Sequence record: OR296290.1
Direction: 5' to 3' (one strand)
DNA from: Escherichia phage SDYTW1-F1-2-2_3
DNA: 64,000 nucleotides
The notes under the pieces are model-generated. The model was not told the origin of the DNA, searched no databases, and saw only the letters and a list, made by a program, of their open reading frames with translations. Below, in pieces: positions 29,536 through 56,634 of this stretch. The position numbers and the translations under genes are program-made. The number at the start of each line of letters is the position of its first letter. Position 1 is the stretch's first letter.

Positions 29536-29544
29536 TAATGTATA
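29536..29544 (+). promoter_or_regulatory. TAATGTATA promoter-like motif (candidate phage-sigma-dependent late promoter)
   Basis: Exact TAATGTATA 33 nt upstream of ATG 29578, just after capsid terminator. Confidence 0.4.
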
Positions 29545-29577
29545 TTCTTTGTCTACATATAACAAGGAGGACAACCT

Positions 29578-30330
29578 ATGGCGATGCCTGAAGTGCAAAA
29601 CCCGACTAACACGTATGGCTGGCTTAAGAAAGCTGTTGCCTTGTGGGCCGATCGAGACGATGATGAATTTGTTAATCAAATTCCAAACTTTATTAACTTT
29701 GCAGAGAAAGAGATTTATCGTAACTTACGTATCCCTCCTCTGGAAAAAGAAGTGTATTTAGATATTAAAGATGGAGTAGCTTATATTCCTCCTGATTACT
29801 TAGAAGCTCAATGGATGATGAGAGCCAAAGACGGAACAATCTTCCAAGTAACATCTCCTGAGGAGATTAGCTATCGTAGACAGCATGGAACAATTAACCC
29901 ATCTCACTGGAACAACCAACCTGTTAACTTTGCTCGTTTCGGTAGTCGTTTCATTTTCTACCCTAGAATCGAAGCAGACACTCCTGTTTACCCTGATGAT
30001 GGAAGTCCTTTGATTCCAGCAGAAAACTCAGTAATTCTTAGCTATTATGCAGATCCACCGGAATTTCATGAAGATGAAGATACTAGTGCAATCCTCACTA
30101 TCGCACCAGAGCTTCTTCTGTATTTTACTCTACGTCATGCTTGCTTGTTTGTTCAAGATGATAACGGAGTTCAGAAATGGTCAGCATTAGGAAAAGCTAT
30201 CCTTGATGAAATGGTAGAGCAGAATAAGAAGCAAGAGTACTCAGGTTCACCTATCGCAATTCCGAATAACATGACTCGACTTCAGAGCAGCTTGCCTGAT
30301 ATTTATGGTATTCGTACTTCTCGTGTATAA
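29578..30330 (+). CDS. virion structural protein (possible head-tail adaptor)
   Basis: 250 aa; first gene after capsid terminator; AAGGAGG SD. Confidence 0.35.
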   Translation: MAMPEVQNPTNTYGWLKKAVALWADRDDDEFVNQIPNFINFAEKEIYRNLRIPPLEKEVYLDIKDGVAYIPPDYLEAQWMMRAKDGTIFQVTSPEEISYRRQHGTINPSHWNNQPVNFARFGSRFIFYPRIEADTPVYPDDGSPLIPAENSVILSYYADPPEFHEDEDTSAILTIAPELLLYFTLRHACLFVQDDNGVQKWSALGKAILDEMVEQNKKQEYSGSPIAIPNNMTRLQSSLPDIYGIRTSRV

Positions 30331-30339
30331 GGAGATAAT

Positions 30340-33300
30340 ATGATCGTTTATAATAACCAAGCACCTGATGCAGTGAATAACGTTGGGCAGTTTGGTGCTA
30401 CAGAAGGCTCTATCGGAGCTTACAAGCAAGCAGCAGAATATGCAGCTGATTCTAAGTATTGGGCATTACTGGCTGAGTCTAAGTTTGGCACAATCGATGA
30501 TCTGATTGCTGAAGTAGAACGTCTATATCAACAGGGTGTTCTGATGCAGCAAGACATTGAGGCTTTGAAGCAGGATTTTAGAGACCAAGATGCTCATTTA
30601 ATGCAACTTATCGCTCAGACTAACGCAGCTGTTTCTGATGCACAGAACGCTCTGGCTCTTATGGACCAGAAGCTGATTGAAGTTCAGGAACGACTGGATA
30701 TTCTGTTAGGTATGTCTGTTGACGTCACTACACTTCCTCCGGGAAATGAAGCTTCTGGGCATTTTGACCCTAACACTGGTGTTATCTCTTTGGGTATCCC
30801 TCAAGGTGTTCCGGGTAAAGATGGTACAGTAACAGATTTGAATAACGCACCAACCGGTGTTCCTGTTCTTGGTGATGTAGGTTTCTATGTTGATAAAGAT
30901 GACAACACTGTTCACAAAACGTCTTTAGAGAATATTGCAAACCTTATCCCATCTGTTCGTTCTATCTCTGTAAACGGCGGTCCTGCTGAGAGTGGTGAAG
31001 TTGCTCTAACTCTTGACAAAAGTACTGTTGGGTTAAGTAATGTAGAGAACGTGGCTTCTTATAGTAAAGAGGTTGTTGATAACAAAGTTGATGGTTTTAT
31101 TAAAACATACAGCTCTAAAGCTGAAGCGGATGCAGATGCTGTTAATCGTGAGGCTGGAGAAACTGTTTTAGTGTGGGAAAACACTCAGTATGTTTTCTAC
31201 AAAGTGGCTGCTGATAAGATTCTAGATTTAAGTAAAACAGAACCTCGGGTTATTACTGTCAACTCTCGTATTCCTGACTCTAGCGGTAACATTGATATTA
31301 CAATCCCTACAGGGAACCCATCCTTGTATCTAGGTGAATTATTGATGTTCCCTTATGACCCATCTCGCCCTATTTCTTATCCTGGGATTTTACCTGCTGA
31401 CGGTCGTTTGGTGTCCAAGGATTTGGCTAGCGATTTAGGTGCTTCTTTAGTTAGTGGTCAGCTTCCGGTTGTGTCTGAGACAGAATGGCAAGCAGGTGCT
31501 AAGCAGTATTATTCTTGGGGTAAACTGGCTGATGGGCTGACTGATGCAGACTCTACCAACTACATCAACATCCGTCTTCCTGATTGGACTGGTGGTGAAG
31601 CTATTAGATCTCCTAACCTAACTGGCGATGCTTCTTATGACGGTAAGCCATTAGATCAGAAACCTTACATCGTTACTGTTAACGGAATTGCTCCTAACGA
31701 TATCACAGGAAACGTCAACATAACAGCTGCAAATATAGGCGCTTTGGCTAAGTCTGGTGGTATCATGGACGGAAACTTAGTCCTTAACAAAGCTGTATCT
31801 TTACGCAGAATAAAGGATAATGACACTCAAGTTAACATGGTATCGAGAAGTGACTCTGATGCTTCTGTACTTGGTGACCACTTAGCTAAGACTGTAATAG
31901 CTTCTTCCGAGACACCAATCTTCTCTAAACCGGAAGGGGATTATAAGTTTTATACAGAGGATAACAAACCTACGAACGTTGATGTTGGTGCTGCTGGTAT
32001 TGATGTTAATGGTGTAAACTCTGACATAAAAACTTTCACTCAAAAGGTTACGTTCCAGCAACCTGTTACTGTGGCAGATGCTGTTGGAGACTATGATGCT
32101 GTTACCTTACGTCAACTAAGAAACCAAGGTGGTGGAGGTGGCGGTTCTACGATGAATGGTATCTCCAACTTCAATATTGGTGATTTCCGACTAGTAGATA
32201 GTCGAGCTTTTATCCAAGCAAATGATGTTGTGTCTGATGGTCAACTTTTGAACAGGGCCGAGTATCCTGAGCTTTGGGCGTATGCTCAGATGCTCACCCC
32301 TATAGAGGATTCTGAGTGGATTTCAACCCCTTCCAAGAGATCTCAATATTCACTAGGAGATGGCTCTACTACATTCCGTGTCCCTGATAGGAATGGTGTT
32401 CAGAGTGGCTCTGTTAAGGCTTTATATGGAAGAGGTGACGGTGGAGGTTCTTACGGAGGTATTTATGATAGTGGGATTCCTGACATAACTGGTCAGTTCA
32501 GAGCTTATGGATACAATGCAGGTGAACCTACAGGTGCATTTGGTTCCTATAATAGTGGTAGCGCTGAGTTTGAATTAAAATCTACATCTGCTAATTTTAC
32601 TAGGTACAACACATTCACCATAAGTGCCGGAAGGGTTAACTCTGTTTATGGAAGAGCAGACGAGGTCAGGCCTAGATCTTTCGTCGGTGTATGGGTGATT
32701 CGTGCTAAAGGGGCTTTCATCGCTGCCAATACAACATGGTCAGTAATTAATAGTGACACCTCTCGTCCTTCTGACGGAACCACTGTGACTGGTGGTAATG
32801 TAATATCTGAATATAAAGTAGGGGCAGAATCTGAAGGTTCAGCCGAGTTCCGAATGGTTGGAACGATTGGAAGCTCTTATTCTGCTAGAATTGGTGTTTA
32901 CAACAAAACATCAAGTAAAGGAACTACTTTTGATTTTACTGAGGCCGGTAATATAGAGACTCCCAAAGGTCGTGTTTTGGTGAAAGGGGATTACGGTGTT
33001 GGTGCTCAGGGAAGTGTTGTATTACCTGAAACTAACTATAACCAGCTCATAACAGATTCAGATGGTGCCTCATCGTGGGCAGCTGCTAATGGAGGGGGTA
33101 TACAAACTTCCTATGCCGTAAATAGAATCTGTCAATTTTGGGTAAGTCTGAGTGGTTCGGCTTATATCAGATCTAATACACTGAACAACAACCCAAAAGA
33201 ACTCAAATCCAATCTTCCGTGGACAACTCTCCAGAATGCTGGAACCTCTGACGCAAATGTCAAGGATATTGGAGATGATTTAGATTTAAATGTCGCTCTA

Positions 33301-33540
33301 AGTAATATTAAATCTCTTGAATTTAAAAACTTTACTTACAAGAACGATGAGAAGAAATCACCACGTAGAGGGGTAATTGCGCAACAAGCAGAACAGGTGG
33401 ACCCTCAGTATGTCCATAGTGCAGAAAAAAGTGGAGTCATGACTCTTGACACTAACCCGCTTTTATTAGATGCCCTTGCTGCTATCAAGCTTTTGTCTGC
33501 TAAAGTAGAAGAGTTGGAAAAGCAGTTAGCTGCTAAATGA
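30340..33540 (+). CDS. tail fibre/tail spike protein with C-terminal intramolecular-chaperone-like domain
   Basis: 1066 aa; Gly-rich linker, collar-like module (LLNRAEYPELWAYAQ...FRVPDRNG) and C-terminal ...GVIAQQAEQVDPQYV... segment typical of auto-cleaving fibre chaperone domains. Confidence 0.65.
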   Translation: MIVYNNQAPDAVNNVGQFGATEGSIGAYKQAAEYAADSKYWALLAESKFGTIDDLIAEVERLYQQGVLMQQDIEALKQDFRDQDAHLMQLIAQTNAAVSDAQNALALMDQKLIEVQERLDILLGMSVDVTTLPPGNEASGHFDPNTGVISLGIPQGVPGKDGTVTDLNNAPTGVPVLGDVGFYVDKDDNTVHKTSLENIANLIPSVRSISVNGGPAESGEVALTLDKSTVGLSNVENVASYSKEVVDNKVDGFIKTYSSKAEADADAVNREAGETVLVWENTQYVFYKVAADKILDLSKTEPRVITVNSRIPDSSGNIDITIPTGNPSLYLGELLMFPYDPSRPISYPGILPADGRLVSKDLASDLGASLVSGQLPVVSETEWQAGAKQYYSWGKLADGLTDADSTNYINIRLPDWTGGEAIRSPNLTGDASYDGKPLDQKPYIVTVNGIAPNDITGNVNITAANIGALAKSGGIMDGNLVLNKAVSLRRIKDNDTQVNMVSRSDSDASVLGDHLAKTVIASSETPIFSKPEGDYKFYTEDNKPTNVDVGAAGIDVNGVNSDIKTFTQKVTFQQPVTVADAVGDYDAVTLRQLRNQGGGGGGSTMNGISNFNIGDFRLVDSRAFIQANDVVSDGQLLNRAEYPELWAYAQMLTPIEDSEWISTPSKRSQYSLGDGSTTFRVPDRNGVQSGSVKALYGRGDGGGSYGGIYDSGIPDITGQFRAYGYNAGEPTGAFGSYNSGSAEFELKSTSANFTRYNTFTISAGRVNSVYGRADEVRPRSFVGVWVIRAKGAFIAANTTWSVINSDTSRPSDGTTVTGGNVISEYKVGAESEGSAEFRMVGTIGSSYSARIGVYNKTSSKGTTFDFTEAGNIETPKGRVLVKGDYGVGAQGSVVLPETNYNQLITDSDGASSWAAANGGGIQTSYAVNRICQFWVSLSGSAYIRSNTLNNNPKELKSNLPWTTLQNAGTSDANVKDIGDDLDLNVALSNIKSLEFKNFTYKNDEKKSPRRGVIAQQAEQVDPQYVHSAEKSGVMTLDTNPLLLDALAAIKLLSAKVEELEKQLAAK

Positions 33541-33548
33541 TTAACAAC

Positions 33549-33568
33549 GCTCCCTTCGGGGAGCTTTT
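33549..33568 (+). terminator. terminator/attenuator hairpin between tail fibre genes
   Basis: GCTCCC-TTCG-GGGAGC plus TTTT; sits just before SD of next gene. Confidence 0.45.
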
Positions 33569-33579
33569 AGGAGGATTTA

Positions 33580-35733
33580 ATGTCTAGAGAATTAATGCCC
33601 AAATCCGGTATAATGATGCCTCATGTAGTAATCAACAGAGATGCTGCGGTAGTTGGTGTCTCTACTGTAGATGGAGTTGCTGGTGCAGTTGATCTTACTG
33701 GTAAGTACCTACAGAAAACAGATGCGGCAGATACCTATCAAACAAAAACTGAAGGTGCTTCTAAGACTTATGTTTTAGATTCTATTCAACCTATCATGGA
33801 AGGTGCTTTGTTTAAAGCTGACCCTTTCGTAGATAACAATATCCCTTTCCGTTCTGCTGGTGCTAATGGTGTAGAATCCATAGATATGATTAAGGTCACT
33901 CCAGAGAACTCTATTAAACTTGGAAGTTACGAGTCTTCTGTTCAAGGAGTAGAGATTCACTCTGCTGGTCGTGTTGTGGTTGTTGATAAGAACGACTCTG
34001 GTGTGGAAACCAAGTATCCTGTTTACTCCAAACGCTTCCGTCCTGAGATTGAAGATTTACCATTTGCAGCCATAGGCTCTTATGTTAAAGACTCCAAAGG
34101 CCGCACGATCGGTGTGAACCGTACAGGTATTAACTCTGATATTAAACAGTTTACTCAGAAAGTCACCTTCCAGCAGCCTGTAACAATCGCAGATGGTGTG
34201 GGTGATTATGATGCTGTAACAATGAGGCAGTTACGTAACAGTGGTGGTGGTTCTGGTGGTCCTACAATGAGCGGTATCTCTAACTTCGGTATTGGTGATT
34301 TCCACTTACGAGATAGTCGCGCTTTTATTCCAGCTTTTGAGGTTACATCAGATGGGCAGCTTCTTAATCGTGCTGACTATCCTGATTTATGGGCTTATGC
34401 TCAATTATTGACTCCTATTCCTGACTCTCAATGGCTAGGAGATGTTAGGGAACGTGGTAAATATTCAGTGGGTGATGGTTCTACTACTTTCCGAGTTCCT
34501 GACCGAAATGGTGTCCAAGCTGACTCTATTAAAGCATTATTTGCTAGAGGTGATGCTGGTGTTTCATCTATAAATGGAACAATACAACAAGCTCACGTAC
34601 CTAATATTTCTGCCAAAATGGACCTCCATGCAGGTGGTTCAGCCAACATAATAAGTGGGGCCATTGGAGCTTTTGTAGGCGGTGGTGGCTCAACAACGAC
34701 TTATAGAACCCCTGGTACGTTAACAGTAAACTCCGGTGCAAGCTCTTTTGGCACAATGACTTTAGATGCTAGTAAATCTAGCTCTGTGTATGGTTCTATT
34801 CCTTCCAACACGGATGAAGTCTTACCTCGTAACTTTACAGGTGTCTGGACTATTCGTGCCCATGGTGGGTTTGTAGCTGCTAATACCTCTTGGGCTGTTA
34901 TTAATAGTGATGCGTCTGCCACACCCGGCGCTTATGTATCTGGCGGGCAGGTTATATCTAAATATCAGGTTAACGGTGTAGACCGCGCCATTGCCCGCAT
35001 GAGCGCTGATTGGCGGGTTGGGGATGCCTACCAATCAACAATCCATTTTTATAATAACTCAACCAATAGCGGCGGAACTGCGATCACTGATTCTCACTAC
35101 TATTTGAGTGGACCATCTGGACAGATTCTAACTGATTCAAAAACAGGGATAGGTGATGCGGGGGGCATGTTTGCGACACCGAATGCAAACGACTTTACTA
35201 CTAACGGTATTTATGCAGGTGCTGGGGCTAATGGGGTTAACTGGGGGGACGCGTATTCGGCACTGCTGCACATGTCTCGCTATAATGCCTCCTCGCAGCG
35301 CGCTCAGCTTCAGATCAGTCCCACAGGTTTGTTGAAGGTTCGTGGTGCCTCCCCTACAACTTGGTCCGACTGGTTCACAATGCAGGCGCAGGGAACTTCT
35401 GGACGTGACTTTAAGCGCGACATAACCCCAGCAGACCCGAAAGAAGCATTTGACCGGATTGCTTCACAAGATCTTGTCACGTTTATCTATAAGGATGACG
35501 AACAGGAGCGCGTTCGTTTCGGTATTATCGCGGAGGATGCGGAGAAGATTGCGCCGCAATACATCAAGCACGGCGAGGAGACGGTAGAGGTTGATGGTGA
35601 GGTGATCACTCGTGATCATCCGAGAGTCGACGTTAACCCTATTGTCATGGATTTAATTGGCGCTGTTCACTATCTCCGTGATGAAGTTGATCAGCTAAAA
35701 GCAGAACTGGCTGAGTTGAAAGATAGTAAATAA
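33580..35733 (+). CDS. second tail fibre protein with C-terminal intramolecular-chaperone-like domain
   Basis: 717 aa; shares ~150-aa collar-like module and C-terminal chaperone-like domain with 30340-33540. Confidence 0.65.
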   Translation: MSRELMPKSGIMMPHVVINRDAAVVGVSTVDGVAGAVDLTGKYLQKTDAADTYQTKTEGASKTYVLDSIQPIMEGALFKADPFVDNNIPFRSAGANGVESIDMIKVTPENSIKLGSYESSVQGVEIHSAGRVVVVDKNDSGVETKYPVYSKRFRPEIEDLPFAAIGSYVKDSKGRTIGVNRTGINSDIKQFTQKVTFQQPVTIADGVGDYDAVTMRQLRNSGGGSGGPTMSGISNFGIGDFHLRDSRAFIPAFEVTSDGQLLNRADYPDLWAYAQLLTPIPDSQWLGDVRERGKYSVGDGSTTFRVPDRNGVQADSIKALFARGDAGVSSINGTIQQAHVPNISAKMDLHAGGSANIISGAIGAFVGGGGSTTTYRTPGTLTVNSGASSFGTMTLDASKSSSVYGSIPSNTDEVLPRNFTGVWTIRAHGGFVAANTSWAVINSDASATPGAYVSGGQVISKYQVNGVDRAIARMSADWRVGDAYQSTIHFYNNSTNSGGTAITDSHYYLSGPSGQILTDSKTGIGDAGGMFATPNANDFTTNGIYAGAGANGVNWGDAYSALLHMSRYNASSQRAQLQISPTGLLKVRGASPTTWSDWFTMQAQGTSGRDFKRDITPADPKEAFDRIASQDLVTFIYKDDEQERVRFGIIAEDAEKIAPQYIKHGEETVEVDGEVITRDHPRVDVNPIVMDLIGAVHYLRDEVDQLKAELAELKDSK

Positions 35734-35739
35734 TCTATT

Positions 35740-35757
35740 GCCCCTTCGGGGGCTTTA
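35740..35757 (+). terminator. terminator-like hairpin after second tail fibre gene
   Basis: GCCCC-TTCG-GGGGC followed by TTTAG; weak U-tract. Confidence 0.4.
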
Positions 35758-35826
35758 GTAGTAACTAGAGCTAGTAGGTAATGAAACTAATATATCCCAA
35801 GAGGTTAATACATAGGAGATACGTAA

Positions 35827-36045
35827 ATGAAAATGATGAAACAAGCTGTTTACGGTTTAGTCTGTTTAGGTGCAGGGGTTGTGGTTTCTACAGCAGTTCC
35901 TGTTAACGCAGTACATCCATTAGTCACAGCACCAGCTCCTGTTGAGAAACTTAGTTCTCAATGCAAGCAGCGAACTATTCAAAATAACTTGGTTGTTATT
36001 TGTCCTGATGCTGAATCTAACGCCCTGAGAAAGATACTACCTTAA
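35827..36045 (+). CDS. small secreted/membrane protein upstream of endolysin (possible holin-like role)
   Basis: 72 aa; N-terminal MKMMKQAVYGLVCLGAGVVVSTAVPVNA looks like a signal peptide or single TM. Confidence 0.35.
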   Translation: MKMMKQAVYGLVCLGAGVVVSTAVPVNAVHPLVTAPAPVEKLSSQCKQRTIQNNLVVICPDAESNALRKILP

Positions 36046-36074
36046 TTTAAAGGGATCACAAAAGGAGGTTAGAA

Positions 36075-36566
36075 ATGGATAACGTCGCATTGCCACCTGT
36101 ACAGTTAAACTTAAGCCCAGCTGGAATGGAATTCATCATGAAGCATGAGGGTATGAGAACCAAGGCTTATAAAGATTCCGCAGGTATCTGGACAATATGT
36201 GTAGGGGCTACGCGCGATATGAATGGTTATCCGGTTAGGCAAGGATTAACATATTCTATAGAGGATTGTCTAGCTCTGCTAGATAGAGACACACAAGACT
36301 CTGTTCGTGCTACTCAGAAAAACATAAAGGTTCCTTTGCTCGTTCATGAGTTCGATGCACTCACCTCTTTCAACTTCAACGTTGGTAGTGGGGCACTGAG
36401 CACATCTAAGTTAAGGAAGGTTATCAATGGAGATGTCAAAGGTGATGTATACTCAGAGTTTCTTCGTTGGGATAAAATTACGGTGAAGGGAGAGAAGCAG
36501 AGGAGTCAGGGTCTTCATAACAGAAGGGTTGCAGAAGCTGATCTTTATACCGAAGGTAAATATTAA
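36075..36566 (+). CDS. endolysin, lysozyme-type (phage lysozyme family)
   Basis: 163 aa; HEGMRTKAYKDSAGIWTICVGAT matches the catalytic Glu/Asp-Thr region of T4/lambda-type lysozymes. Confidence 0.65.
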   Translation: MDNVALPPVQLNLSPAGMEFIMKHEGMRTKAYKDSAGIWTICVGATRDMNGYPVRQGLTYSIEDCLALLDRDTQDSVRATQKNIKVPLLVHEFDALTSFNFNVGSGALSTSKLRKVINGDVKGDVYSEFLRWDKITVKGEKQRSQGLHNRRVAEADLYTEGKY

Positions 36567-36578
36567 TGGAGGTGCCTT

Positions 36579-37382
36579 TTGGCTATCGAAAATAATGCGG
36601 TAGTAGTTACCGACTTGAATCCACTCTATCCTCGTGATAGGGATTATATCTACGAAGGGGCGGCTCAAATCCGCCTCATCAAACAAACACTACAAAACAC
36701 ATTCCCCAATATCACTGAACCAGTTAATGTTGATTCTGATACTTTTAAGATTATATCAGAGAAGCTCAAGTTTACTGGTGATTCAATGGATGTTGGTGGG
36801 CTTATGATTAAGAACGCTACTCCGGGAACTGGTGATAAAGATGTTGTCACTAAGGGTCAGATGGAAGCATTCATGAAGAATTGGATGGAGAATAAACTTT
36901 ATCGTATTGGTTCTTATTACATCACTGAGGAAGATATTAATCCGGGTGATTCTATCTCTCTTGGGTTTGGTTCTTGGGCTAAGGTTACTGGTGTTATCAT
37001 GGGTACTGGTGTAGTTAACCCTGATGGTTCGGTTCCTAATGCTCAGCGTGTTGAATTCCAAGCAGGTGGTACAGGTGGTCGTGTATTTAATACCATTCGC
37101 ACTGAGAACGTACCTCTTATGACGATTGACGGTTCTAGTTTTAAAGTTTCAAGTAACACCCACTCACATAACATGGTCTTTGGTCGTGGAGATGCAAGTG
37201 GACACAACAGCTCTCCAAACTGGTATAACCCAGGAACTGGATACAGTAAGAGAACTGAAGCAGACACTCACACTCACACCATTTCTGGTTCTGTTAGTTT
37301 TGGTCGTGATGACATCTCACGTCAACCTATTAACACTTTGCCACCATTCAGAGCGGCTCACATTTGGAGACGTATTAGCTAA
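36579..37382 (+). CDS. tail fibre-like/receptor-binding protein (putative); TTG start
   Basis: 267 aa; first in-frame start after upstream stop is TTG with GGAGGTG SD; Gly/Thr/Ser-rich beta-type sequence. Confidence 0.4.
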   Translation: MAIENNAVVVTDLNPLYPRDRDYIYEGAAQIRLIKQTLQNTFPNITEPVNVDSDTFKIISEKLKFTGDSMDVGGLMIKNATPGTGDKDVVTKGQMEAFMKNWMENKLYRIGSYYITEEDINPGDSISLGFGSWAKVTGVIMGTGVVNPDGSVPNAQRVEFQAGGTGGRVFNTIRTENVPLMTIDGSSFKVSSNTHSHNMVFGRGDASGHNSSPNWYNPGTGYSKRTEADTHTHTISGSVSFGRDDISRQPINTLPPFRAAHIWRRIS

Positions 37383-37391
37383 GGAGGAATT

Positions 37392-40391: not shown

Positions 40392-40397
40392 CAACAA

Positions 40398-40424
40398 GGG
40401 GCTTCGTGCCCCTTTTATTGTTTT
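40398..40424 (+). terminator. rho-independent terminator after 999-aa gene
   Basis: GGGGC-TTCGT-GCCCC followed by TTTTATTGTTTT. Confidence 0.55.
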
Positions 40425-40434
40425 GGAGGAACTT

Positions 40435-41448
40435 ATGGGTGCAGGTGGTTTTCGTAAGAACACTGGTCGCAATAACACCACACTCCCGTACAACGTTGGG
40501 TTTCTCAATAATGTACAGGACACAGAAACTTATAACGTAGCCGTGTATGATGAACTACAGAAAGTCAGCACAGCTACTAACCAAATGTTCCAAGCTATTG
40601 ATGAGATTCACGATGAGATTGATGTTCGTATCAAAGCTCTTAATGCGATGAACTTACAATTTGATGAGCTTGAGAACAGGATTACTACAGAGATTGAAAC
40701 AGCTATTGCAGACATCATCACACAGATGGGCAACTTATCCACTGATGACATTTGGGATAACTCAGTACAGCCTCCGGTTAAACTGGAAAGCTCTATCTCT
40801 GGTATTAAAACAAGTATCGAAGGCAATGATTTAAAGATTCAAACTGTGCAAGGGATTGTTAATGACCAAGGTGAAGAGATTGCTTTGGTTCAAACAGAAT
40901 TAACCTCTCAAGGTCAACAAATCTCTGACGTAGACGGCAGAGTTACCACTGTTCAAAACTCTCTATCCCAGTACATGAAGCTTACCTCATACGAAGCAAC
41001 TTGGGGTGTTAACTCTTCTGTTAACGGTCAGTACGCTGGAGTTAAGCTAACTAACAATGGAACAAACAGTCAATTCCAAGTAACAGCTAACAAGTTCATC
41101 GTTGGTAATGGCACGACAGGGAATACTCCTTTTGTGTTTGAGAACGGAAGAGCTAGGATGGAGTTCGCTGATATAAAGAACGTCAACATTACAACTGCTA
41201 TGATTGCTAATGCTAGGATTCAGTGGGCACAGATTGATAATGTTAGTATAACAAATGCACAAATAACGAGTTTATCTGCTAATAAAATAACAGCGGGAGC
41301 TATGAGTGGTTCAAACTGGAGACTCACTGTTGGTGGTGATTTTCAATTAGGTGCTGGTTCTGGTAGTAACCGGTTGTGGATGAATGGTAGCCGTATCGAC
41401 TTCTATGATGCAAGCGGTACGCTCCGTATTAGAATAGGGACTTGGTAA
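40435..41448 (+). CDS. tail-associated structural protein (putative)
   Basis: Track ORF trimmed to ATG 40435 with GGAGGAA SD; helical N-half, beta-rich C-half. Confidence 0.45.
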   Translation: MGAGGFRKNTGRNNTTLPYNVGFLNNVQDTETYNVAVYDELQKVSTATNQMFQAIDEIHDEIDVRIKALNAMNLQFDELENRITTEIETAIADIITQMGNLSTDDIWDNSVQPPVKLESSISGIKTSIEGNDLKIQTVQGIVNDQGEEIALVQTELTSQGQQISDVDGRVTTVQNSLSQYMKLTSYEATWGVNSSVNGQYAGVKLTNNGTNSQFQVTANKFIVGNGTTGNTPFVFENGRARMEFADIKNVNITTAMIANARIQWAQIDNVSITNAQITSLSANKITAGAMSGSNWRLTVGGDFQLGAGSGSNRLWMNGSRIDFYDASGTLRIRIGTW

Positions 41449-41449
41449 T

Positions 41450-42493: not shown

Positions 42494-43276
42494 ATGGCAA
42501 TTAGAATGGGTATAGAAGAACTAGACCCGATGGTTCAACAGGCTTCAAAGAAGTATGGAATACCAGCTGCTTTGATTCATGCTGTAATTCAAAGGGAGTC
42601 TAGTGGTCGTCCTAAAGTGGCTTCCGGAACTGGTCCTGTTGGTTTAATGCAGATCAGTAAAGGGTTAGCCAAAGACTATGGTTACAAACTAGAAGACAGA
42701 CTTGACCCAGCAAAGAATATCGATATGGGTGCTCGTTATATAAGAGATAACCTGAAAGCTTTCAACGGTGATGTTAAGAAAGCAATGGTTGGTTACTCAG
42801 AAGGAACTGGTGGTGCTAAGCAGATGTTCGCTGGTAAGAAAGGATTTACTCCTCAAGCTCTTGACTCAATGAACAACAAACACTTCCTCCCGTTTTATGG
42901 TGATGCAGCTTCTCAGATTGCTAACCCAATTGGAGCTTTGCAAGCTGTTCAACCAGTCAATCAGTTTAATCCTGACTTGTTAGACAGAGAGAAGGCTGCA
43001 CAAGCTCCCACTCAGGCAGAGATTGCTGCTTCTAAGACAGGTGCTTTAGGTGGTAATCCGGTAGAGTTTTACTCTGATGAAGTCCAAGAAGGAGAAGACC
43101 AGAAGCCTCAACAGAACTTTGGTAATGCAGTATTAGGAGTAGCTGCTATGCTTGCTGGTAAACCTCCTACATCTCAAACAGTTCAGAGAGCGAGTGCACC
43201 ACATGCGGCAGGTTCTCAGTACAGCCCACAAACACAAGCAGTGCTTAGACGTTTGGCTAGCATTGGTGTTAAGTAA
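42494..43276 (+). CDS. virion-associated lytic transglycosylase (SLT domain)
   Basis: 260 aa; QRESSGRP...GPVGLMQI matches the SLT catalytic-Glu motif. Confidence 0.65.
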   Translation: MAIRMGIEELDPMVQQASKKYGIPAALIHAVIQRESSGRPKVASGTGPVGLMQISKGLAKDYGYKLEDRLDPAKNIDMGARYIRDNLKAFNGDVKKAMVGYSEGTGGAKQMFAGKKGFTPQALDSMNNKHFLPFYGDAASQIANPIGALQAVQPVNQFNPDLLDREKAAQAPTQAEIAASKTGALGGNPVEFYSDEVQEGEDQKPQQNFGNAVLGVAAMLAGKPPTSQTVQRASAPHAAGSQYSPQTQAVLRRLASIGVK

Positions 43277-45329: not shown

Positions 45330-45342
45330 TTAGGAGATAAAT

Positions 45343-47022
45343 ATGCAACAGACAACTTACGCTCAGGTCAGAAGTCGTGACCCGAGAAATACTTTCTATG
45401 GTGTTAATCCGGGAGCGGCTTCGGCCTCTCCTTATATGGCTAGACCTACTCAGACAGCGGATGTTTCTATGTACCAGCGTCCTGCTGTACCTTCATCTCT
45501 CGCAGGTCTTGTCTCTCAGGCAGAAGAAGATCAGAATGCTATGGTGAATCCGGGATTCCAGCAACGTCTTATGGAACAACAGAATCAAGGAACCCCAACA
45601 AGTCTTCAGGGTATTGACATTGGAGCACCAGCCCCTGTAGCAGCTAATCCTAATTTATCTACTGATCAAGGTTTGCAGGATGCTGGACTTATGCCTAGTG
45701 ACCCTCTTCCGGTGACACCTCCTGCCAAGCCACTAGAAACTGGTCCTATGGAGTTTACTCCTTCTCAGGTTGAACAAGCACAAGGTGTTGTTAATACTCT
45801 TGCTCAAGGACAAGACACCGGTGACGGAATGGCTGCTGCTACTCGTACTAAAGATCAAGAGCGTGTTAACAATGATATCTTGCAAGTTGCAAAAGCTAAA
45901 GATCCTTCAGAAGCTTGGAAGAAGTTACAGAAAGAACCTTTCTATCAGAACTCTAGTTTCTATACAGGTTTAATGGGTGTAGGTCTTTCTATCATGTCAG
46001 GTAAATCTCCTATCGAAGCATTCCAGATTGGTCAGGGGATGGCTAATCAAGATGAGACTAAAAAGCAACTGGAAGCTAACCGTGATGCTCTGATTGAACA
46101 AGGTTTCTCTCAAGACTCAATTGCAGCTGCTATAGCTCAGGGTGATCCTTCTCTTCTGAAGATGAAAGCTAAAGACCCTCTTCAACAGGAAGCTCTGTAT
46201 GCTGCTCGTGAAGAACGTCAGAATGCTGAGTGGGATAGACGTCAAGCTATCAATGAAGAATCTGCTGAGAGAAACCGTAAGGCTACTTTGGAAAATCAGT
46301 TAGCTCTGGCGGAAGCGCGTGGTGAGATTACTCGCGACAACCTTTTGTTCAAGAAGGATCACAATGTTCGTAGAACATCTCCCAAGTGGGAAAAAACAGA
46401 GGAGCTTGGTGGTATTACTCCTAACTTGCGAGATAAATTACAGCAATCTTATCGTCCTGTTATTAATGTCCTAGCTTCTCGAAACAAGTGGATGGCTCCT
46501 ACAGAGGCTGCTATTTCTAAACTAGGAACTGGTGCAAATTCTCAAGAGAACTCAGCTCAGCAACGTGCTGCTATTGAGAACTTGACTAAACTTATTCAGG
46601 GTGGTTTAGCTTCTATTAACGGAGAAGTTATGAATGAGCTTACAGGTGATCCAGATTGGGTTAACAACAAGTTGAATAAGATTCAGATGATGGCAGGTCA
46701 AGGTCCGACCGAAGCAAATATCAAGTGGCTTAAAGCACTCGGTACAGAGATTCAAGAGATTGATAAAGAGGCAACTAAGTACCAAGTAGCCCCTCTAGTG
46801 GAATCTTTGATTCTTGATAGTGGTTTGGCTCCTGAAAATGCTATCAGAGCTGCTAACTCTATTTTTGCTCCTGGCTCTGTTCGACTCACTACTGAGGAGT
46901 TTAAAGAATGGTCTCGTGGACATAGTAAAGTTCACGATAAAACATTCCCTGATGACAAGCCTTCTAAATTGAAGGGTGGTGCTTTATCTGGTTCTTCAGA
47001 TACTAGCTGGTTCACTCAATAA
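45343..47022 (+). CDS. virion structural/internal protein
   Basis: 559-aa ORF in structural block. Confidence 0.45.
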   Translation: MQQTTYAQVRSRDPRNTFYGVNPGAASASPYMARPTQTADVSMYQRPAVPSSLAGLVSQAEEDQNAMVNPGFQQRLMEQQNQGTPTSLQGIDIGAPAPVAANPNLSTDQGLQDAGLMPSDPLPVTPPAKPLETGPMEFTPSQVEQAQGVVNTLAQGQDTGDGMAAATRTKDQERVNNDILQVAKAKDPSEAWKKLQKEPFYQNSSFYTGLMGVGLSIMSGKSPIEAFQIGQGMANQDETKKQLEANRDALIEQGFSQDSIAAAIAQGDPSLLKMKAKDPLQQEALYAAREERQNAEWDRRQAINEESAERNRKATLENQLALAEARGEITRDNLLFKKDHNVRRTSPKWEKTEELGGITPNLRDKLQQSYRPVINVLASRNKWMAPTEAAISKLGTGANSQENSAQQRAAIENLTKLIQGGLASINGEVMNELTGDPDWVNNKLNKIQMMAGQGPTEANIKWLKALGTEIQEIDKEATKYQVAPLVESLILDSGLAPENAIRAANSIFAPGSVRLTTEEFKEWSRGHSKVHDKTFPDDKPSKLKGGALSGSSDTSWFTQ

Positions 47023-47042
47023 GACCTAAGTCCTGCCTTCTA

Positions 47043-47051
47043 TAATGTATA
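47043..47051 (+). promoter_or_regulatory. TAATGTATA promoter-like motif
   Basis: Exact TAATGTATATA 38 nt upstream of ATG 47090. Confidence 0.4.
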
Positions 47052-47089
47052 TAGGGGGTAGGACATTTTTATTTATAAAAGGAGACGTT

Positions 47090-50000
47090 ATGGCTAACAT
47101 TAAACCGTGGGAAGAAGCTTCCAAAGCTCCTGCGTATCTGAATGCCTCTCCGGAGCGTCAAGCTCAAATGAGAGAACAATATAAGGCAGCAGGTGGCTCT
47201 ATTCCTGAGGAACGACCAGTGGCACAACCACAACAAGAAGAACGTGGTGTTATTGGTGAGTTTGCTCAAGGTGTGTCAAATGCTCTTCAATCTGGTGGTG
47301 CAAACATCGCAGCTAGTACTGCTAGAGGTGTTGGTGGTTTGGTTGAGCTTGGTGAAAACCTAGCTGGAGCACAAACTAGTTATGGTAAGCGTATCCAAGA
47401 GAATGCTCAAAACCTCTTGAAAGAACGTATGGATAAGATTGAGGATGGGATTGGTAAAACTGCCGGTCAGTACGCTGGAGTGGCTGCCGATATCGGTTTG
47501 ACAGTTGCTAGCCCATTAACTGCCGCTGCTGTCATCGCAGGTCGTGAGACAGGTCGTGCATATGCAGACCAAACCCCTGAAGAGGGAGAAGATAAGTCTG
47601 TTCTGGATGCAGCTCTAGTCGGTGGTGCTAACTATGCAGCTATGAGAATCCTTCCGGGTGCTGTTGGTACAGCTGAGTCCACACTTGGACGTATTGGTCA
47701 GAACGTTGCTTCTAACGCAGTGGCTGGTGCTAAAGGTGGTGCTCTTATTGGTGCTGCTGAAGCTCAGAACAAATATGGTGATGACAATGATCTAGCTAAG
47801 ACACTAGAAGGTGTTATCACAGAAGGGGCTATGGGTGCTGCATTTGGTGGTGCAGTTGGTGGGGTTCATGGTTTGATTAGTCGTCCGGATTCTGCTGTCT
47901 TTAGGAACACTCCAGAGTATGCGAAGACTGATATTGCTGCTGATGATGAGTTGATTCGTAGTGCTAAGAATATTGATGAACTGAAAGAAGCCTACTCTAA
48001 AGCTGAAACTGCTAATGCTGCTTCTGCCCTTAATCTTCTGGATGAGAATGGATTCCGTATCACAGATGCTGTTGCTGTAGATTCTCCTGCTGCTCAGCGT
48101 ATTCTTAATACAGACCAAGCTCGTGCTGAGAAAGCTGCTTCTGCTCAGAAAGACCACTCTAACATCCCGGGCCTTAATCCTTTGGCTGCCCCTGCTAAGA
48201 CTCGTGGTAAAGCTTTCGCTGATAATGAGCACAACCAGAAACAGGCTGTTGCTATGAAAGATGCAATGGCTGATTACACCAAGGATAACACTAAAACTCT
48301 TACAGATGTTCTAGATAATCTAGATCGTGAATTAACCTCTCTCCGAGCTTCTGGTGACTTTACTGGCAGCCCGATTGATATTAAGAATCGCACACAAGCT
48401 GACCGTGATTTCATTGATGCTTACAAGACTTTCTATAATGAAGCAAACCGATTCAAAGCTCGTGATGGTGAAGACTTTAACAACTTTGTAGAGAAAGCTA
48501 CTGAGCTACAGAAGATGGCTGATAACGTTTCTCCAGAGATGAAGAAAGCTATTGGTGGGTTGAAAAAACTGAAGGGTATGCCTGAAGGTTTTAATCCTAT
48601 CCAAGACGCTTACACTCTGAACAACACAGCTAAGTTTATGAGCAACCAAGATCGTGGTTGGACTTCCCTAACTGACGACGGCTTCCGTGAGGCTTCTTCT
48701 CCTAGTCTGGTTATGAACACCCTTGGTGCTGCTAAGTATGCTCTGAATCGCTTCTCTTCTCAGCGTGCTCGCTCTCAACGTGTTAAACAACAAGAATCTA
48801 ACAGTGAAGCTATCCGCTCTCTGGCTCGTGGTGATTTGGAAGTTGCTCGTGCTAAATCTACTGCTGATGAAGCTCGTGCTAAAATGGAAGAAGAACCAGT
48901 TGTTGATGACATTAATTTTAAGACGCAAAATGACGTAGAAACCGAACCGGTTCGGGAGCCTTCTTCTAGTACTGTGACGGAAGAAAATCTTCCTTCTTCT
49001 GCTCTTCAAGATTCCCCTCTTACAGCTCGTGATTTAGTTGCGCAAAGACGTGCTATCCGTCAGGCTGAACAGCGTCGTGCTGAAGAAGAGGCGGCGGCAG
49101 CTCGAGAAGCTCCGGTTGAACAGGCTCCACAGGCTGAACCTCTCCCTGCTCGTAATCCTTTAGAGGAGCGTCGTGCAATAGAGCAGCAACGTGCTCAAGA
49201 AGAGGGCCAAAAGGCTTCATCAGAGGATGCATCTTCTGTTACTAAAGAATCCCTCTCTCACTATGCTGAAGATGGGATACTTTCTCAAGACTTAAATGGC
49301 AACATTGCTCTTCGCCTAAACCAGTTCACCCCAGCTGAGCAACAGTTTTTGCGTAACCATAATTTGGTTGACTCAAACGATATGGTCAAAGCTAGTTCTC
49401 TAAGACAAGCTGATCCATTACCTGCTCGTGCTCCTAAAGCTCCTAAGGAAGCTGTACAGGACGTTAAACCGGCAAGTGGTGTAGAACGCTTAGCTGCTAT
49501 GTCTAGTGCTGCTCGTCAGGCTACTAAAGATCGTGCAGAACGTTTTGCTCGTTCTCTGTATTCTAAGGCTGCTAAGGCTAAAGCTACTGCTGAAAACTTC
49601 TTGGCTTACAAGGGTGATCCTAAGGAATTGATGCGTCGTATTCGTCAGGAAGATAATGCTATCAACACTGAACGTCATGAAGAGATGGCTCGTAATCAGC
49701 TAGCTTCTCAGCAAGGTATTGCTACTGCTAAGAACAACACTGTACGAACTAACTTTGCTGAATGGGTTAAGGAACGTGGTCTGCCAGAAGACATTGCTAC
49801 TAAGGCATTACGTGCTGAAGAGAAAGGTTTAGGTGGGAACGTAACTAACTTGGATAGTCTTAAACGTCGTGCTGAAAGGTTGTATCAGAAGCAGCGTGAG
49901 GATGAGTTTGATAGACTGTATCAACAAGCTCTAGAAGAGAATAAAGCTTTCGACAAGAAAGATGCTCCTAAACTGGTTGACCAGAAGAAAGAGCTTCAAT

Positions 50001-51670: not shown

Positions 51671-51679
51671 TAAAAGAAA

Positions 51680-51717
51680 AGCCCTCAAGGAGAAATCCAA
51701 GAGGGCTTTATTTGTTT
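51680..51717. terminator. bidirectional terminator at convergence of late and replication blocks
   Basis: AGCCCTC...GAGGGCT stem with inner GGA-GAAA-TCC tetraloop hairpin; A-run 5' and T-run 3'. Confidence 0.6.
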
Positions 51718-51956
51718 CTAGATTTTCTTGTAAGTGATAGTTCCTTCTTTAACAGCTTTATCATAAGCCGCTTTGAACTTTTTCATCATATTAATTTTGC
51801 TCTGTTTTATCTTTTCAAAATCCATCAAATTCATCCTCATACATCCCAATTCTCTTCAGAAATCTGGATGTTCATCTTCAAAGCATCCTGAGATGCCTCC
51901 GTAGAACCAATCTGATTTACTGCCAAGAATAACAACCTCTTCATTCATATACCCTC

Positions 51957-52118
51957 CTAGATTGTGTTTATAAAATCAGCAAGTTTCTCTTCACTCTCAT
52001 CAAAAGCTTTTCCAGCTGCTTCCATCTCCCAAGTCTCGGCATTGTCAATAAAGCTCTGAGCTTCTAGTAGATCGTGGATTAAGTCGAAGAGTTTATTTTT
52101 ATCTGCTTGTGTGATCAT
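51957..52118 (-). CDS. small acidic protein (53 aa)
   Basis: AGGAA SD; open 53 codons verified; begins right after stop of 52127-52384. Confidence 0.3.
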   Translation of the reverse strand: MITQADKNKLFDLIHDLLEAQSFIDNAETWEMEAAGKAFDESEEKLADFINTI

Positions 52119-52126
52119 GTCAGTTC

Positions 52127-52384
52127 CTAGATTAAATCGTAATACTGAATAATGTCAGAGAGTTTGAACTCTCGAATCTCATCTTTCTCTACATCTATCG
52201 CTGTCATAATCCAACAAGGTTTGCCACCGTTATGAAAACGGGAGCTAGCAACGGAGGTTCGGAGTGGAATAACGGACCGGTCAGCAACCTCGCCTCTCCA
52301 ATTGCGATAGCGAAAGCGAAGAACTTGTTGCGTAGATTTTTGATCATCACTCGTTTCCTTTTTTGAATTGTTTTCTTGCATCAT
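52127..52384 (-). CDS. hypothetical protein
   Basis: 85-aa track ORF. Confidence 0.45.
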   Translation of the reverse strand: MMQENNSKKETSDDQKSTQQVLRFRYRNWRGEVADRSVIPLRTSVASSRFHNGGKPCWIMTAIDVEKDEIREFKLSDIIQYYDLI

Positions 52385-52748
52385 TTTCCATCTTAGTTTT
52401 TAGTTTATGACAAGGGTCTTTACACAGAACCTGAAAACCTTCTTTCTCGCACAGAGCACGAGAGATGATTTCATCCCAAGTTGCTTCGTGGTCAAGAGGA
52501 ACTATAGGCTCTATGTGGTCAATAGCCATATCCTTTACAGGGTGGTCAGAACCACACATGGCACACTTAAAGTGCATTGCCAGTCTTCCTGTCTTTGGAT
52601 TAATTTTCTGCTCTGTCTTGGCGTCTGCTAGTGCATCGAACATAGGCTTCCACTTTCTAGTCAGAGAACGAATCCCTGACTTGATGAAAGAATTGTAACG
52701 AGCTTCAGTCCACATTCCAGAGCATCTGGTCTTCTCAGCCTTCGCCAT
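52347..52748 (-). CDS. HNH endonuclease
   Basis: 133 aa; CAMCG...HIDHIEP...CHKLK Cys/His arrangement typical of HNH nucleases. Confidence 0.5.
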   Translation of the reverse strand: MAKAEKTRCSGMWTEARYNSFIKSGIRSLTRKWKPMFDALADAKTEQKINPKTGRLAMHFKCAMCGSDHPVKDMAIDHIEPIVPLDHEATWDEIISRALCEKEGFQVLCKDPCHKLKTKMENDARKQFKKGNE

Positions 52749-52926
52749 AACCTACACTCATATCATCTTCTTCCCATACACGTTTATCCACTCGATGTGA
52801 TACTTTTTCACGCTTTTCTTTAATATAGCGATTGCCTAATTCATGACTATATTTAATACGCTGCTCTTTTCGAGATTCGCGATTGGAGGAGTTTTCATCA
52901 TATGAACGATAGTCAAATTTACCCAT
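52735..52926 (-). CDS. hypothetical small basic protein
   Basis: Track ORF trimmed to internal ATG downstream of exonuclease stop. Confidence 0.35.
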   Translation of the reverse strand: MGKFDYRSYDENSSNRESRKEQRIKYSHELGNRYIKEKREKVSHRVDKRVWEEDDMSVGYGEG

Positions 52927-52936
52927 TATAATATCC

Positions 52937-53744
52937 TTATTCCCAAGTTTTTTCGAGCCACGACCAATCAAATAGGTCTTCCGGAGTCTGACCAACAAAG
53001 AGCAGCTGAGCATTCTCAAGCATCTTCTCTTCATCTTCAGTATCGAACTTCTTATAATATTCCATTCGTACTATATGATACATGGTCCACTTGTCTGTAA
53101 CACCAGCCAATAACTTAGCTGCTGCTTTCTTCCCTATTCCTTGACGTCGAAGCTGAAGCTTACCGCCCCACATAACTTCTTTACGTTCTCCACATCCGGG
53201 GATATTATCTGTACCATCTCCAACCAACATCTGATAGAAGAAGTTTTGCCATGAAACTAAATCAGATACATAGTGAGGAGGAACCTCTTTCTGTCTTTCT
53301 CCACAAGCCCAACGGTAGTGCCATCCGGGAGTTATCAACAAATCTTTGTCTCTAGTACAAATGATAGTGTTCTTGTCCCTACGCTGCCTTTCAGCTAGTG
53401 CATCATCAGCCTCTCTCCCAAATACATCTATGTATTCATATTTACCTTTAATATAATCACCAACATTTTGCCAGTGAAAAGGTCTCTCTCCGGGAGGTCT
53501 ATTTGCTTTGTAGTCTTGCTGCTTAGCAACATCAAAGCGGAAGTTACCACCTTCGCTGAAGTAGAACACAACCTTACTACAACCAGAGCGAGCTATGATT
53601 GTATCAATCTTATACTGAAGTCGTTCAATCATGAAATTGTAATCAACTGGAACACGTCCTGTGTCAAGAAAGGGATGCTCCTGAGTAAGAGCACCCACTT
53701 CATATCGAAGAACGTCAGCATCCACTATAGCCACTTCAGGGAGC

Positions 53745-53767
<23 letters not shown>
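52937..53767 (-). CDS. 5'-3' exonuclease / flap endonuclease
   Basis: 276 aa; FGREADDALA matches the G-x-EADD motif of the 5'-nuclease family. Confidence 0.6.
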
Positions 53768-55281
<1,514 letters not shown>

Positions 55282-55583
55282 AATGCATCTCTTTATAAAT
55301 AGTTTCCGTGTTCTTCTTCCAGTTAGATAAACTGGTAAGAACTCTCTGAGCAACTTCATCAGCTGCCTTACTTCTTTCAATCTCTAACTCTTGTTGATGC
55401 TTTTCTTTATCCAGATTGTTACTATCTGTTCTGTACTCATTAAACTTCATACCACCAAAGAACACAAGAGCTGAGAAAACGATAAACCCTAAGTTATCAC
55501 TTAACGTGTTTTGCATAATGACTCTCCTATTAAAGTATGTAAGAAGAGTTCATTATATAACCTACTTTGTGACTGTCTCCAAT

Positions 55584-55605
55584 GAAAAAAGCCACCCGAA
55601 GGTGG
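55584..55605 (-). terminator. rho-independent terminator after SSB-like gene (minus strand)
   Basis: On minus strand GCCACC-UUCG-GGUGGC then UUUUUU. Confidence 0.65.
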
Positions 55606-55628
55606 CTAAGCTATAACAAGGAGAGTTA

Positions 55629-56375
55629 TTAGAATGGGCTATCGTTGTCGTCTTCGTAAGTAGAAGCAGGCTCTTTATCAATCGTAGGGATTGAAGGAGT
55701 AGCTTCTTTCTGTTCTGTTTCAGAAGCACGAGTAATTTCACGACCAGCCAGAGGCATGTTCTTAGCGTCATTAGCTTGGGTAAGCAGATTGCGCTGGAAC
55801 GGGAACATCAGTTGATAGGATGCTACGTTCTCGTCGGTTTCCGCATACGGTTCGAAGAATACCAGAGGACTACGAGCTTCACCAACTGCTGCACGATATT
55901 TGGTTGGGATTGGAGAAATTGTCTTGATGGAGTTTTTAACTTCACCAGCTTTGTTAGTGTAAGAGTTAACCAGAATGTTAACAGGCTGACCTAACAGTAC
56001 ACCCTTAAACCAAGACAGATCACCTTTCAGTGCTTGAATGCTTGGGTCAATCATCTTGCAGAGATCAAGAATACCAGAGTTCTTAGCTCGTGGGTTTACA
56101 TCATAGCTCTTGAACTGGCAAGCCGGACGTGGTTCTAATGCCTTACCATCGGAATCTTTACCAGTAGCATCAACACCAATCAGCTCAAAAGCCAAATCCA
56201 TACGGAAAGCTGGATTCTTAGGAGTTACTGCTTTGGTCTTCGGGTCAACCCAAGGGTCACGATTGTGAACACCCAAACCTACTACACGAACAATACGTGC
56301 TTCATACTCACCATCAGGGATTACGTCGTAGTTGGATTTACGGGAAGAAGTTGCGATAGTTGGAATCATGCTCAT
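55629..56375 (-). CDS. single-stranded DNA-binding protein (putative)
   Basis: 248 aa; acidic C-terminal tail ...YEDDNDSPF resembles the SSB acidic tip ending in Phe. Confidence 0.45.
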   Translation of the reverse strand: MSMIPTIATSSRKSNYDVIPDGEYEARIVRVVGLGVHNRDPWVDPKTKAVTPKNPAFRMDLAFELIGVDATGKDSDGKALEPRPACQFKSYDVNPRAKNSGILDLCKMIDPSIQALKGDLSWFKGVLLGQPVNILVNSYTNKAGEVKNSIKTISPIPTKYRAAVGEARSPLVFFEPYAETDENVASYQLMFPFQRNLLTQANDAKNMPLAGREITRASETEQKEATPSIPTIDKEPASTYEDDNDSPF

Positions 56376-56433
56376 TATTAATTTCCTTATTTAATTTGAA
56401 AGATTGTTGCTCTCTTTGAGCGGTTATGTATAG

Positions 56434-56442
56434 TATACATTA
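56434..56442 (-). promoter_or_regulatory. TAATGTATA promoter-like motif (minus strand) upstream of SSB-like gene
   Basis: Plus strand TATACATTA = minus-strand TAATGTATA about 58 nt upstream of ATG 56375. Confidence 0.35.
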
Positions 56443-56625
56443 CAGATGTATTGTAGGAACTACCGAAGGGTGGTAGGTTTTGTCCAAACAAAAGTCTCTT
56501 TAGAGTTGTTTGTTGGGGATTGTCTCTTATAAACCCGAGACTGCCTAGCAGTTACATAAGCTCTAGCTTTTTCTGTAGCTGCATACTTATGATTAAATTT
56601 CATGGTAGTATATCTCTAAGGGCTA

Positions 56626-56634
56626 TAATGTATA
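56626..56634 (+). promoter_or_regulatory. orphan TAATGTATA promoter-like motif facing a gene-free plus-strand region
   Basis: Exact TAATGTATATA on plus strand; no plus-strand ORF in the next ~300 nt. Confidence 0.3.

Follow-up and report, generated by a model that had tools for sequence, protein, structure and literature searches.

Phage phiEco32 redirects host RNA polymerase (RNAP) with a sigma factor of its own, gp36. As described in PMC8948821, PMC4331800 and PMC4281155, which cite Pavlova 2012, the gp36 holoenzyme uses six promoters with a single shared element, tAATGTAtA; the first two of these accounts, again after Pavlova 2012, place the start of transcription 6–8 nt downstream of the element. 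In the summary given in PMC8948821, the promoters precede the late genes 6, 13 and 26 and the middle genes 40, 58 and 68. Supplementary Table S3 of that paper gives the cores as TAATGTAgA for P6, TAATGTATA for P13, P26, P40 and P58, and aAATGTATA for P68, and has promoters at matching places in NJ01, ECBP2, KBNP1711, SU10 and 172-1. Here we describe the copies of TAATGTATA in 64,000 nt of Escherichia phage SDYTW1-F1-2-2_3 (OR296290.1; this whole stretch is called the window). They match the published class, and one orphan copy, which has no open reading frame (ORF) to serve, is most likely a further member of it.

The way in which the element is read was revealed in 2025 by a cryo-electron microscopy (cryo-EM) structure of the gp79–gp36–RNAP open complex on P68 (PMC12276001). 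The N-terminal domain of gp36 reads −14A, −13A, −12T and −11G of the motif, and the transcription bubble extends from −11 to +2. The C-terminal domain contacts −37G through R187 and −34A through Y186, and mutation of these two bases abolishes transcription. P26 is transcribed in vitro by the gp36 holoenzyme. The second protein, gp79, blocks sigma-70 and stimulates P26 and P68 3- to 4-fold (P26: 4-fold; all PMC12276001).

The window belongs to a phiEco32-like coliphage (Kuravirus, Gordonclarkvirinae) with 92–95% identity over 15 kb to SR02, ES17, SU10 and others. It is collinear with phiEco32 in permuted form: positions 1–20642 correspond to phiEco32 54543–77533, and positions 21627–63288 to phiEco32 1290–44242. 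The sigma gene named in the first-pass annotation of this DNA is real.

54377–55021, minus strand: sigma factor gene (gp36 orthologue) reading the motif; identified by tblastn, phmmer and PHROG 1740 (sigma factor)

Its product is 98.6% identical to phiEco32 gp36 (tblastn) and differs from chain F of PDB 9m7y by two substitutions in 213 aligned residues (phmmer, E = 4e-144). Every residue for which PMC12276001 names a DNA contact is unchanged (E79, H80, Y83, R84, W90, S91, S94, N95, Y186 and R187). The domain scores are below threshold, at 19 bits for Pfam Sigma70_r2 (cutoff 24) and 23 bits for NCBIfam sigma70-ECF (cutoff 42.9). The solved structure of the near-identical gp36 has sigma2-like and sigma4-like folds (PMC12276001), and membership of the sigma-70 family therefore rests on structure, not on sequence.

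A genome-wide motif search had been proposed in the first-pass annotation. Run on the window, it returned five exact copies of TAATGTATA, at 29536–29544 (+), 47043–47051 (+), 56434–56442 (−), 56626–56634 (+) and 62350–62358 (−), where 0.71 are expected; none of 100 dinucleotide-preserving shuffles reached five. Four of these copies had been listed before and are correct, but the list was incomplete, as it missed the copy at 62350–62358. Neither the one-mismatch variants, taken as a class (22 vs 21.2 expected), nor the 6-mer core AATGTA (48 vs 44.4 expected) are enriched; the signal is therefore the full 9-mer. One functional copy with a mismatch, TAATGTAGA at 22014–22022 (+), is the published P6. 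Judged by the orthologous phiEco32 annotation, every copy is intergenic, and the non-coding share of the window is only about 10%, even with a permissive ORF model.

Apart from the orphan, the copies show one-to-one positional orthology with the phiEco32 promoters (22014 = P6, 29536 = P13, 47043 = P26, 56434 = P40 and 62350 = P58). The published register, in which the first T of the motif is −15, reproduces −37G and −34A on P68 and is therefore right. The predicted +1 positions were taken solely from this register.

22014–22022, plus strand: P6-type late promoter, core TAATGTAGA, predicted +1 at 22029; one-mismatch match, alike in sequence and position to phiEco32 P6 at 1677
29536–29544, plus strand: P13-type late promoter, predicted +1 at 29551; exact motif, phiEco32 orthologue at 9101
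47043–47051, plus strand: P26-type late promoter, predicted +1 at 47058; exact motif, phiEco32 orthologue at 26014
56434–56442, minus strand: P40-type middle promoter, predicted +1 at 56427; exact motif, phiEco32 orthologue at 36632
62350–62358, minus strand: P58-type middle promoter, predicted +1 at 62343; exact motif, phiEco32 orthologue at 42937, with P58 in Table S3 of PMC8948821

Every copy, the six in the window and the seven in phiEco32, has A at −34. All have a purine at −37, which is G in P6, P68, the orphan and the P40 of the window and A otherwise. The P6 copy directly follows a terminator hairpin (21984–21997) with a T-run. Similarly, the terminator said earlier to stand on the capsid side of the gene starting at 29578 is seen in the sequence upstream of 29536, as CCCTGCCTTCGGGCGGGG followed by T7. 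The claim that the motif lies 33–58 nt upstream of three genes that start transcription units holds as well. The P13 copy is 33 nt from an adaptor/virion structural gene (29578–30330, Pfam SU10_adaptor match), the P26 copy is 38 nt from a 1526-amino-acid gene starting at 47090, and the P40 copy is 58 nt from a gene for an OB-fold protein resembling single-stranded DNA-binding protein (SSB; 55629–56375). The P40 copy is kept in all 18 phages of the comparison described below. The copy that had been missed, P58, is 36 nt upstream of a 107-amino-acid gene at 61990–62313.

For these five promoters, the basis of the assignment is experiments on a 92–96% identical phage together with orthology. That the motif is a promoter element for the phage-encoded sigma, as first proposed from the letters of the DNA, has been shown by experiment for phiEco32 gp36, and the window copies are its positional orthologues. 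The motif finding is an ordinary one, in that the promoter class is published and structurally characterized. To the first reading can be added that the element was already published, that P58 is a fifth exact match and P6 a variant, and that there are −35 contacts as well.

Some details of individual promoters were observed in passing. The start predicted for P6 (22029) falls past an AGGAG Shine–Dalgarno sequence (22022–22026), and the leader before the annotated ATG at 22034 is thereby 5 nt long; the PHROG match of the gene product starts at residue 16. The annotated start or the mode of translation may thus need a second look. P13 and P26 both carry TAAGACCTA (29513–29521 and 47020–47028, +) exactly 14 nt upstream of the motif, in the window and in phiEco32. 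Its candidacy as a late-specific upstream element is weakened by the presence of the same 9-mer at unrelated positions in both genomes. An inverted repeat at 56424–56442, TTATGTATA-G-TATACATTA, overlaps P40, and its arms, GTATA-N(1-3)-TATAC, are kept in 18/18 phages. It could be an operator over −10 to +5, or no more than the motif nearly repeated on the opposite strand.

The orphan copy has a counterpart in phiEco32 at 36704 (+), in the spacer between genes 40 and 41, where it diverges from P40. Two elements can be assigned to it.

56626–56636, plus strand: orphan −10 element TAATGTATATA; exact motif, phiEco32 orthologue at 36704, divergent from P40
56604–56613, plus strand: orphan −35 element GGTAGTATAT, giving −37G and −34A; assigned from conservation in 18 phages and likeness to P68

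The 18 phages compared are the window, phiEco32, SU7, ES17, SR02, SGF2, EP335, Paul, Bas87, Bas88, Bas94, TH42, XT32, MN05, NJ01, ECBP2, KBNP1711 and one IMG/VR contig; they span at least three named genera, with several members unclassified. The −10 element TAATGTATATA is invariant in all 18. The −35 element, GGTAGTAnAT (−37 to −28), is invariant except for one G/T position. The distance between the two is constant, and all 12 spacer columns vary. Invariant columns thus number 20/21 in the −10 and −35 elements vs 0/12 in the spacer (Fisher p = 3.7e-8). This pattern is the footprint of a bipartite promoter under selection. In phiEco32, the upstream block of the orphan, TTGGTAGTAGATAT, equals that of P68 over 14 nt with identical spacing. 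P68 is the promoter of the cryo-EM structure, and the orphan matches it exactly at both −37 and −34. The predicted +1 is the A at 56641. On this pattern of conservation, the orphan copy is probably a real seventh gp36 promoter, with a non-coding RNA, antisense to the middle operon, as its expected product.

Three features lie downstream of the orphan.

56641–56657, plus strand: predicted +1 and 5′-terminal hairpin ATAGCU-GAUAA-AGUUAU; from the register, covariation and single-sequence folds
56725–56829, no strand assigned: near-invariant 105-bp non-coding module; matched in 98 of 98 related GenBank phages
56806–57017, no strand assigned: segment with the highest AT content in the window at scales of 150 and 200 bp; sliding-window ranking, 77–79% AT vs a mean of 58%

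The hairpin begins exactly at the predicted +1, with 100% of cells paired across 15 distinct sequences. Compensatory double changes occur at two pairs (UA to GC; CG to UA or AU), and one pair alternates between G-C and G-U. As the G-U pair would be a C.A mismatch on the opposite strand, a plus-strand RNA is favoured. The hairpin is followed by a segment that exists in two alternative versions, and then by the 105-bp module, whose 11 distinct versions are only a few bases apart. The module contains a small hairpin, GCAGG-N5-CCTGC (56734–56748), and a long A/U-rich stem (56756–56822). Read on the minus strand, the stem precedes UUUUUAUCUC and hence probably serves as intrinsic terminator for the gene-41 operon. 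Read on the plus strand, where it would form the 3′ portion of the orphan RNA, it gains length from G-U pairs and lacks a U-tract. The alifold energies are alike on both strands (−26.9 plus, −23.4 minus), and a strand assignment by covariation is impossible in a module that is near-invariant.

Approximately 165 nt separate the orphan +1 from the start of the AT-rich segment, whose richest 150–200 bp are at 56818–57017. Part of the segment is coding on the minus strand, where it holds the 35-amino-acid homologue of gene 41 (56836–56943), and an AT content of 74–82% over 100 nt is retained in 18/18 phages despite differing gene content. A direct repeat, AGGGACT-CCT-AGGGACT (56797–56813, +), is located inside the near-invariant module. 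Read by eye, Paul, Bas87, Bas88, TH42, XT32 and ECBP2 seem to have a shortened form, AGGACT, in both copies at once.

The statement that no plus-strand ORF follows 56634 stands in so far as no ORF there is conserved in phiEco32; this includes the small ORFs of 20–21 amino acids with TTG starts. Rfam covariance models gave no match at E ≤ 1 on either strand of 56300–57100. A role as a trans-acting small RNA was considered and set aside: the longest complementarity of the unique 5′ part elsewhere is 11–12 nt (E ≥ 0.28), and no top-scoring translation-initiation target is common to the window and phiEco32.

We hold with high confidence that the best overall explanation is a set of gp36 promoters of the published class, with the orphan most likely a seventh member. 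The copies of TAATGTATA would act as −10-type elements for E. coli RNA polymerase carrying the phage sigma, the orthologue of gp36. The N-terminal domain of the sigma would read A−14, A−13, T−12 and G−11 and the DNA would be opened from −11 to +2, so that transcription would start approximately 7 nt past the motif; the C-terminal domain would touch −37 and −34. In phiEco32, gp79 shuts off sigma-70 and stabilizes the gp36 complex. The copies at 22014 (variant), 29536 and 47043 would serve the late structural operons (P6, P13 and P26), and those at 56434 and 62350 the middle genes (P40 and P58). For the orphan at 56626, conservation makes a seventh functional promoter of the gp36 class, with a start near 56641, the most likely assignment. 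Its non-coding plus-strand RNA would open with the 5′ hairpin and continue through the module at 56725–56829, where it would be antisense to the middle operon next to it at that operon's 3′ end.

Several points weigh against this explanation. The orphan copy is absent from the six-promoter lists of PMC8948821, PMC4331800 and the SU10 paper, the primary account of Pavlova 2012 being beyond this comparison. A literature search for Kuravirus transcriptomes, origins and antisense RNAs gave nothing relevant. The gp79 gene (phiEco32 52601–52849) is outside the window, which covers phiEco32 54543–77533 and 1290–44242, and P68 likewise lies in the part of the genome outside it. Few independent lineages contribute to the covariation of the hairpin, and the conserved module is explained equally well as a minus-strand terminator. 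No plus-strand terminator was found within 1.6 kb downstream of the orphan, those farther away being weak consensus matches inside genes; the length of the orphan RNA is therefore undefined. We give an even chance to the more specific proposal that the site at 56604–56636 is a seventh gp36 promoter whose RNA runs through the reverse of the middle-operon terminator into the most AT-rich DNA and acts as a cis-antisense regulator or as an origin-activating or priming transcript.

A real orphan promoter might instead have DNA replication as its main job, with transcription opening or priming an origin in the AT-rich DNA downstream. This is possible, though unlikely. The promoter has no ORF to serve, it lies in the replication-gene region next to the SSB-like gene, and the most AT-rich 150–200 bp of the window begin about 165 nt downstream, with an AT-richness retained in 18/18 phages even where the genes differ. 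The intervening 105 bp are near-invariant and include the direct repeat AGGGACT-CCT-AGGGACT. However, the AT-rich block is largely coding and is separated from the start site by these 165 nt rather than adjacent to it, the literature search gave no mapped origin in any phiEco32-like phage, and the GC skew is uninformative since it tracks gene orientation. Neither an initiator nor an iteron array was identified. A lead towards a replication initiator next door (NCBIfam NGO0469 family) was dropped; this is an untested name for the OB-fold SSB-like protein.

It is less probable still that the orphan is not productive, being a decoy or roadblock that binds the gp36 holoenzyme, a relic of a P68 duplication, or a site with a minus-strand function such as the P40 control region or the 47-amino-acid ORF next to it. 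The 14 upstream bases common to the orphan and P68 are compatible with duplication, but in a relic the −35 and −10 blocks would not stay unchanged and equally far apart across 18 phages whose spacers have turned over completely. The orphan faces genes on the opposite strand and no ORF, and it overlaps a weak minus-strand match of sigma-70 type (56634–56607); against this, the hairpin that sits exactly at +1 shows covariation, with G-U pairs that fit one strand only, and most of the relatives in which the orphan site persists lack the 47-amino-acid ORF. Absence from the published six-promoter lists compared, which include a genome-wide motif search, would also fit a non-productive site. These lists, however, drew on regions upstream of genes on the coding strand, and an antisense site would therefore have been skipped. 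Thus, of the two roles first suggested for the orphan, the non-coding or antisense RNA is favoured by the conservation and the covarying 5′ hairpin, and the decoy is the less likely one.

We dismiss as highly improbable the idea that the motif is no sigma promoter at all, but an AT-rich repeat arisen by chance or a target for a different DNA-binding protein. The genome is 58% AT, the motif itself is AT-rich, and its 6-mer core and one-mismatch variants are unenriched, yet the exact copies far exceed expectation (5 vs 0.71, with 0/100 shuffles at 5), all copies are intergenic and correctly oriented, and the mapped starts, in vitro gp36-dependent transcription and base-specific contacts in the solved structure at orthologous sites already contradict it.

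The preferred explanation, gp36 promoters of the published class with a seventh member at the orphan, brings nothing new for the motif itself. It confirms that the phage uses the published phiEco32 gp36/gp79 transcription programme, and a confident annotation of the late and middle operon starts is now possible. What is new is confined to the orphan, which probably adds one member to an already known class of promoters. If it is transcribed, the orphan RNA would be the first non-coding or antisense transcript assigned to a gp36-type sigma. The site could also point to a replication origin or to a mechanism for shutting off middle genes in a phage group that is used in therapy studies. RNA-seq of E. 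coli NC101 infected with the kuraviruses RSB02 and RSB04 (PX402466 and PX402468), sampled at 10 min, is available as BioProject PRJNA1225266 (PMC12803456).

The surroundings of the orphan and other parts of the window gave further observations. An insertion of approximately 150 bp (56459–56603, −) separates P40 from the orphan and holds the 47-amino-acid ORF (56460–56603), for which no family match was found, and a GC-rich hairpin (56459–56476). This stretch is matched by only about 9 of 98 GenBank phages (ES17, myPSH2311 and the EcK/EcP/EcM type) and by one IMG/VR contig (L004). With the insertion, P40 gains a new GGTA at positions −37 to −34. In three more distant loci (L009–L011; gp40 67–70% identical, contigs of 82–90 kb), (T/A)AATGGATA replaces TAATGTATA approximately 120 nt upstream of the gene 40 homologue. 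These loci also have GGTA or GGAA at −37 to −34 and are without a divergent partner, which suggests a sigma with a shifted −10 specificity. Elsewhere, a perfect sigma-70 consensus promoter (60895–60923, −; TTGACA, 17 nt, TATAAT, with a TG extended −10; 12/12) lies inside the first approximately 20 codons of the DNA polymerase ORF (59106–60950, −). phiEco32 has an identical copy at 41350, and neither genome contains another perfect consensus. A tRNA-Arg gene (anticodon TCT) at 10993–11069 (−), in the early region, matches the tRNA-Arg annotated in phiEco32.

Phage 7-11 offers a comparison at the level of the sigma. With its gp47-dependent late promoters, it resembles the present system in that a phage factor of the sigma-70 family redirects the host polymerase to a few conserved promoters at equivalent positions (PMC8948821). 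In contrast, its sigma has only about 15% identity and its consensus is bipartite, GTAAtg-N16-aCTA; it has no gp79 homologue and no middle class, and TAATGTATA was not found there (PMC8948821). The AsiA/MotA system of T4 is alike as an early-to-middle switch in which one protein disables region 4 of sigma-70 and another gives new specificity (PMC12276001). However, T4 remodels the host sigma, whereas the gp36 system replaces it with a separate phage sigma and recognizes a −10-type element partly as single-stranded DNA.

For the orphan RNA, the comparisons are with regulatory antisense RNAs and with origins. The OOP RNA of lambda is a short, terminated cis-antisense RNA of 77 nt. Like it, the orphan has a (putative) promoter that faces the main operon in the replication-gene region, no ORF, and an RNA that would overlap the 3′ end of a convergent transcript. 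Of the dedicated promoter and intrinsic terminator that define an OOP-type RNA, the promoter features are present at the orphan and the terminator is not, in that none was seen on the plus strand over those 1.6 kb. Moreover, the first approximately 110 nt of the orphan RNA would lie outside the overlap with minus-strand RNAs that stop at the putative terminator. The primary origin of T7 combines the promoters phi1.1A and phi1.1B with an AT-rich region, and the T4 origins ori(uvsY) and ori(34) combine a middle promoter with an unwinding element that carries a persistent R-loop. The orphan is similar in that a putative phage-specific promoter with no coding role precedes unusually AT-rich DNA, and the phage has a polymerase and a primase-helicase set of T7-like type. 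It differs in that its AT-rich block is 165 nt downstream and partly coding.

The closest system remains that of phiEco32 itself. The window differs from it by the insertion of approximately 150 bp with the 47-amino-acid ORF between P40 and the orphan; P68 and the gp79 gene fall outside the window, and the six published promoters do not include the plus-strand copy that both phages carry between genes 40 and 41. The two are alike in the 9-bp element, in the sigma (98.6%, with identical contact residues), in the positions of five of the six promoters, in −34A and a purine at −37, and in the layout of a terminator followed by a promoter ahead of the late operons.

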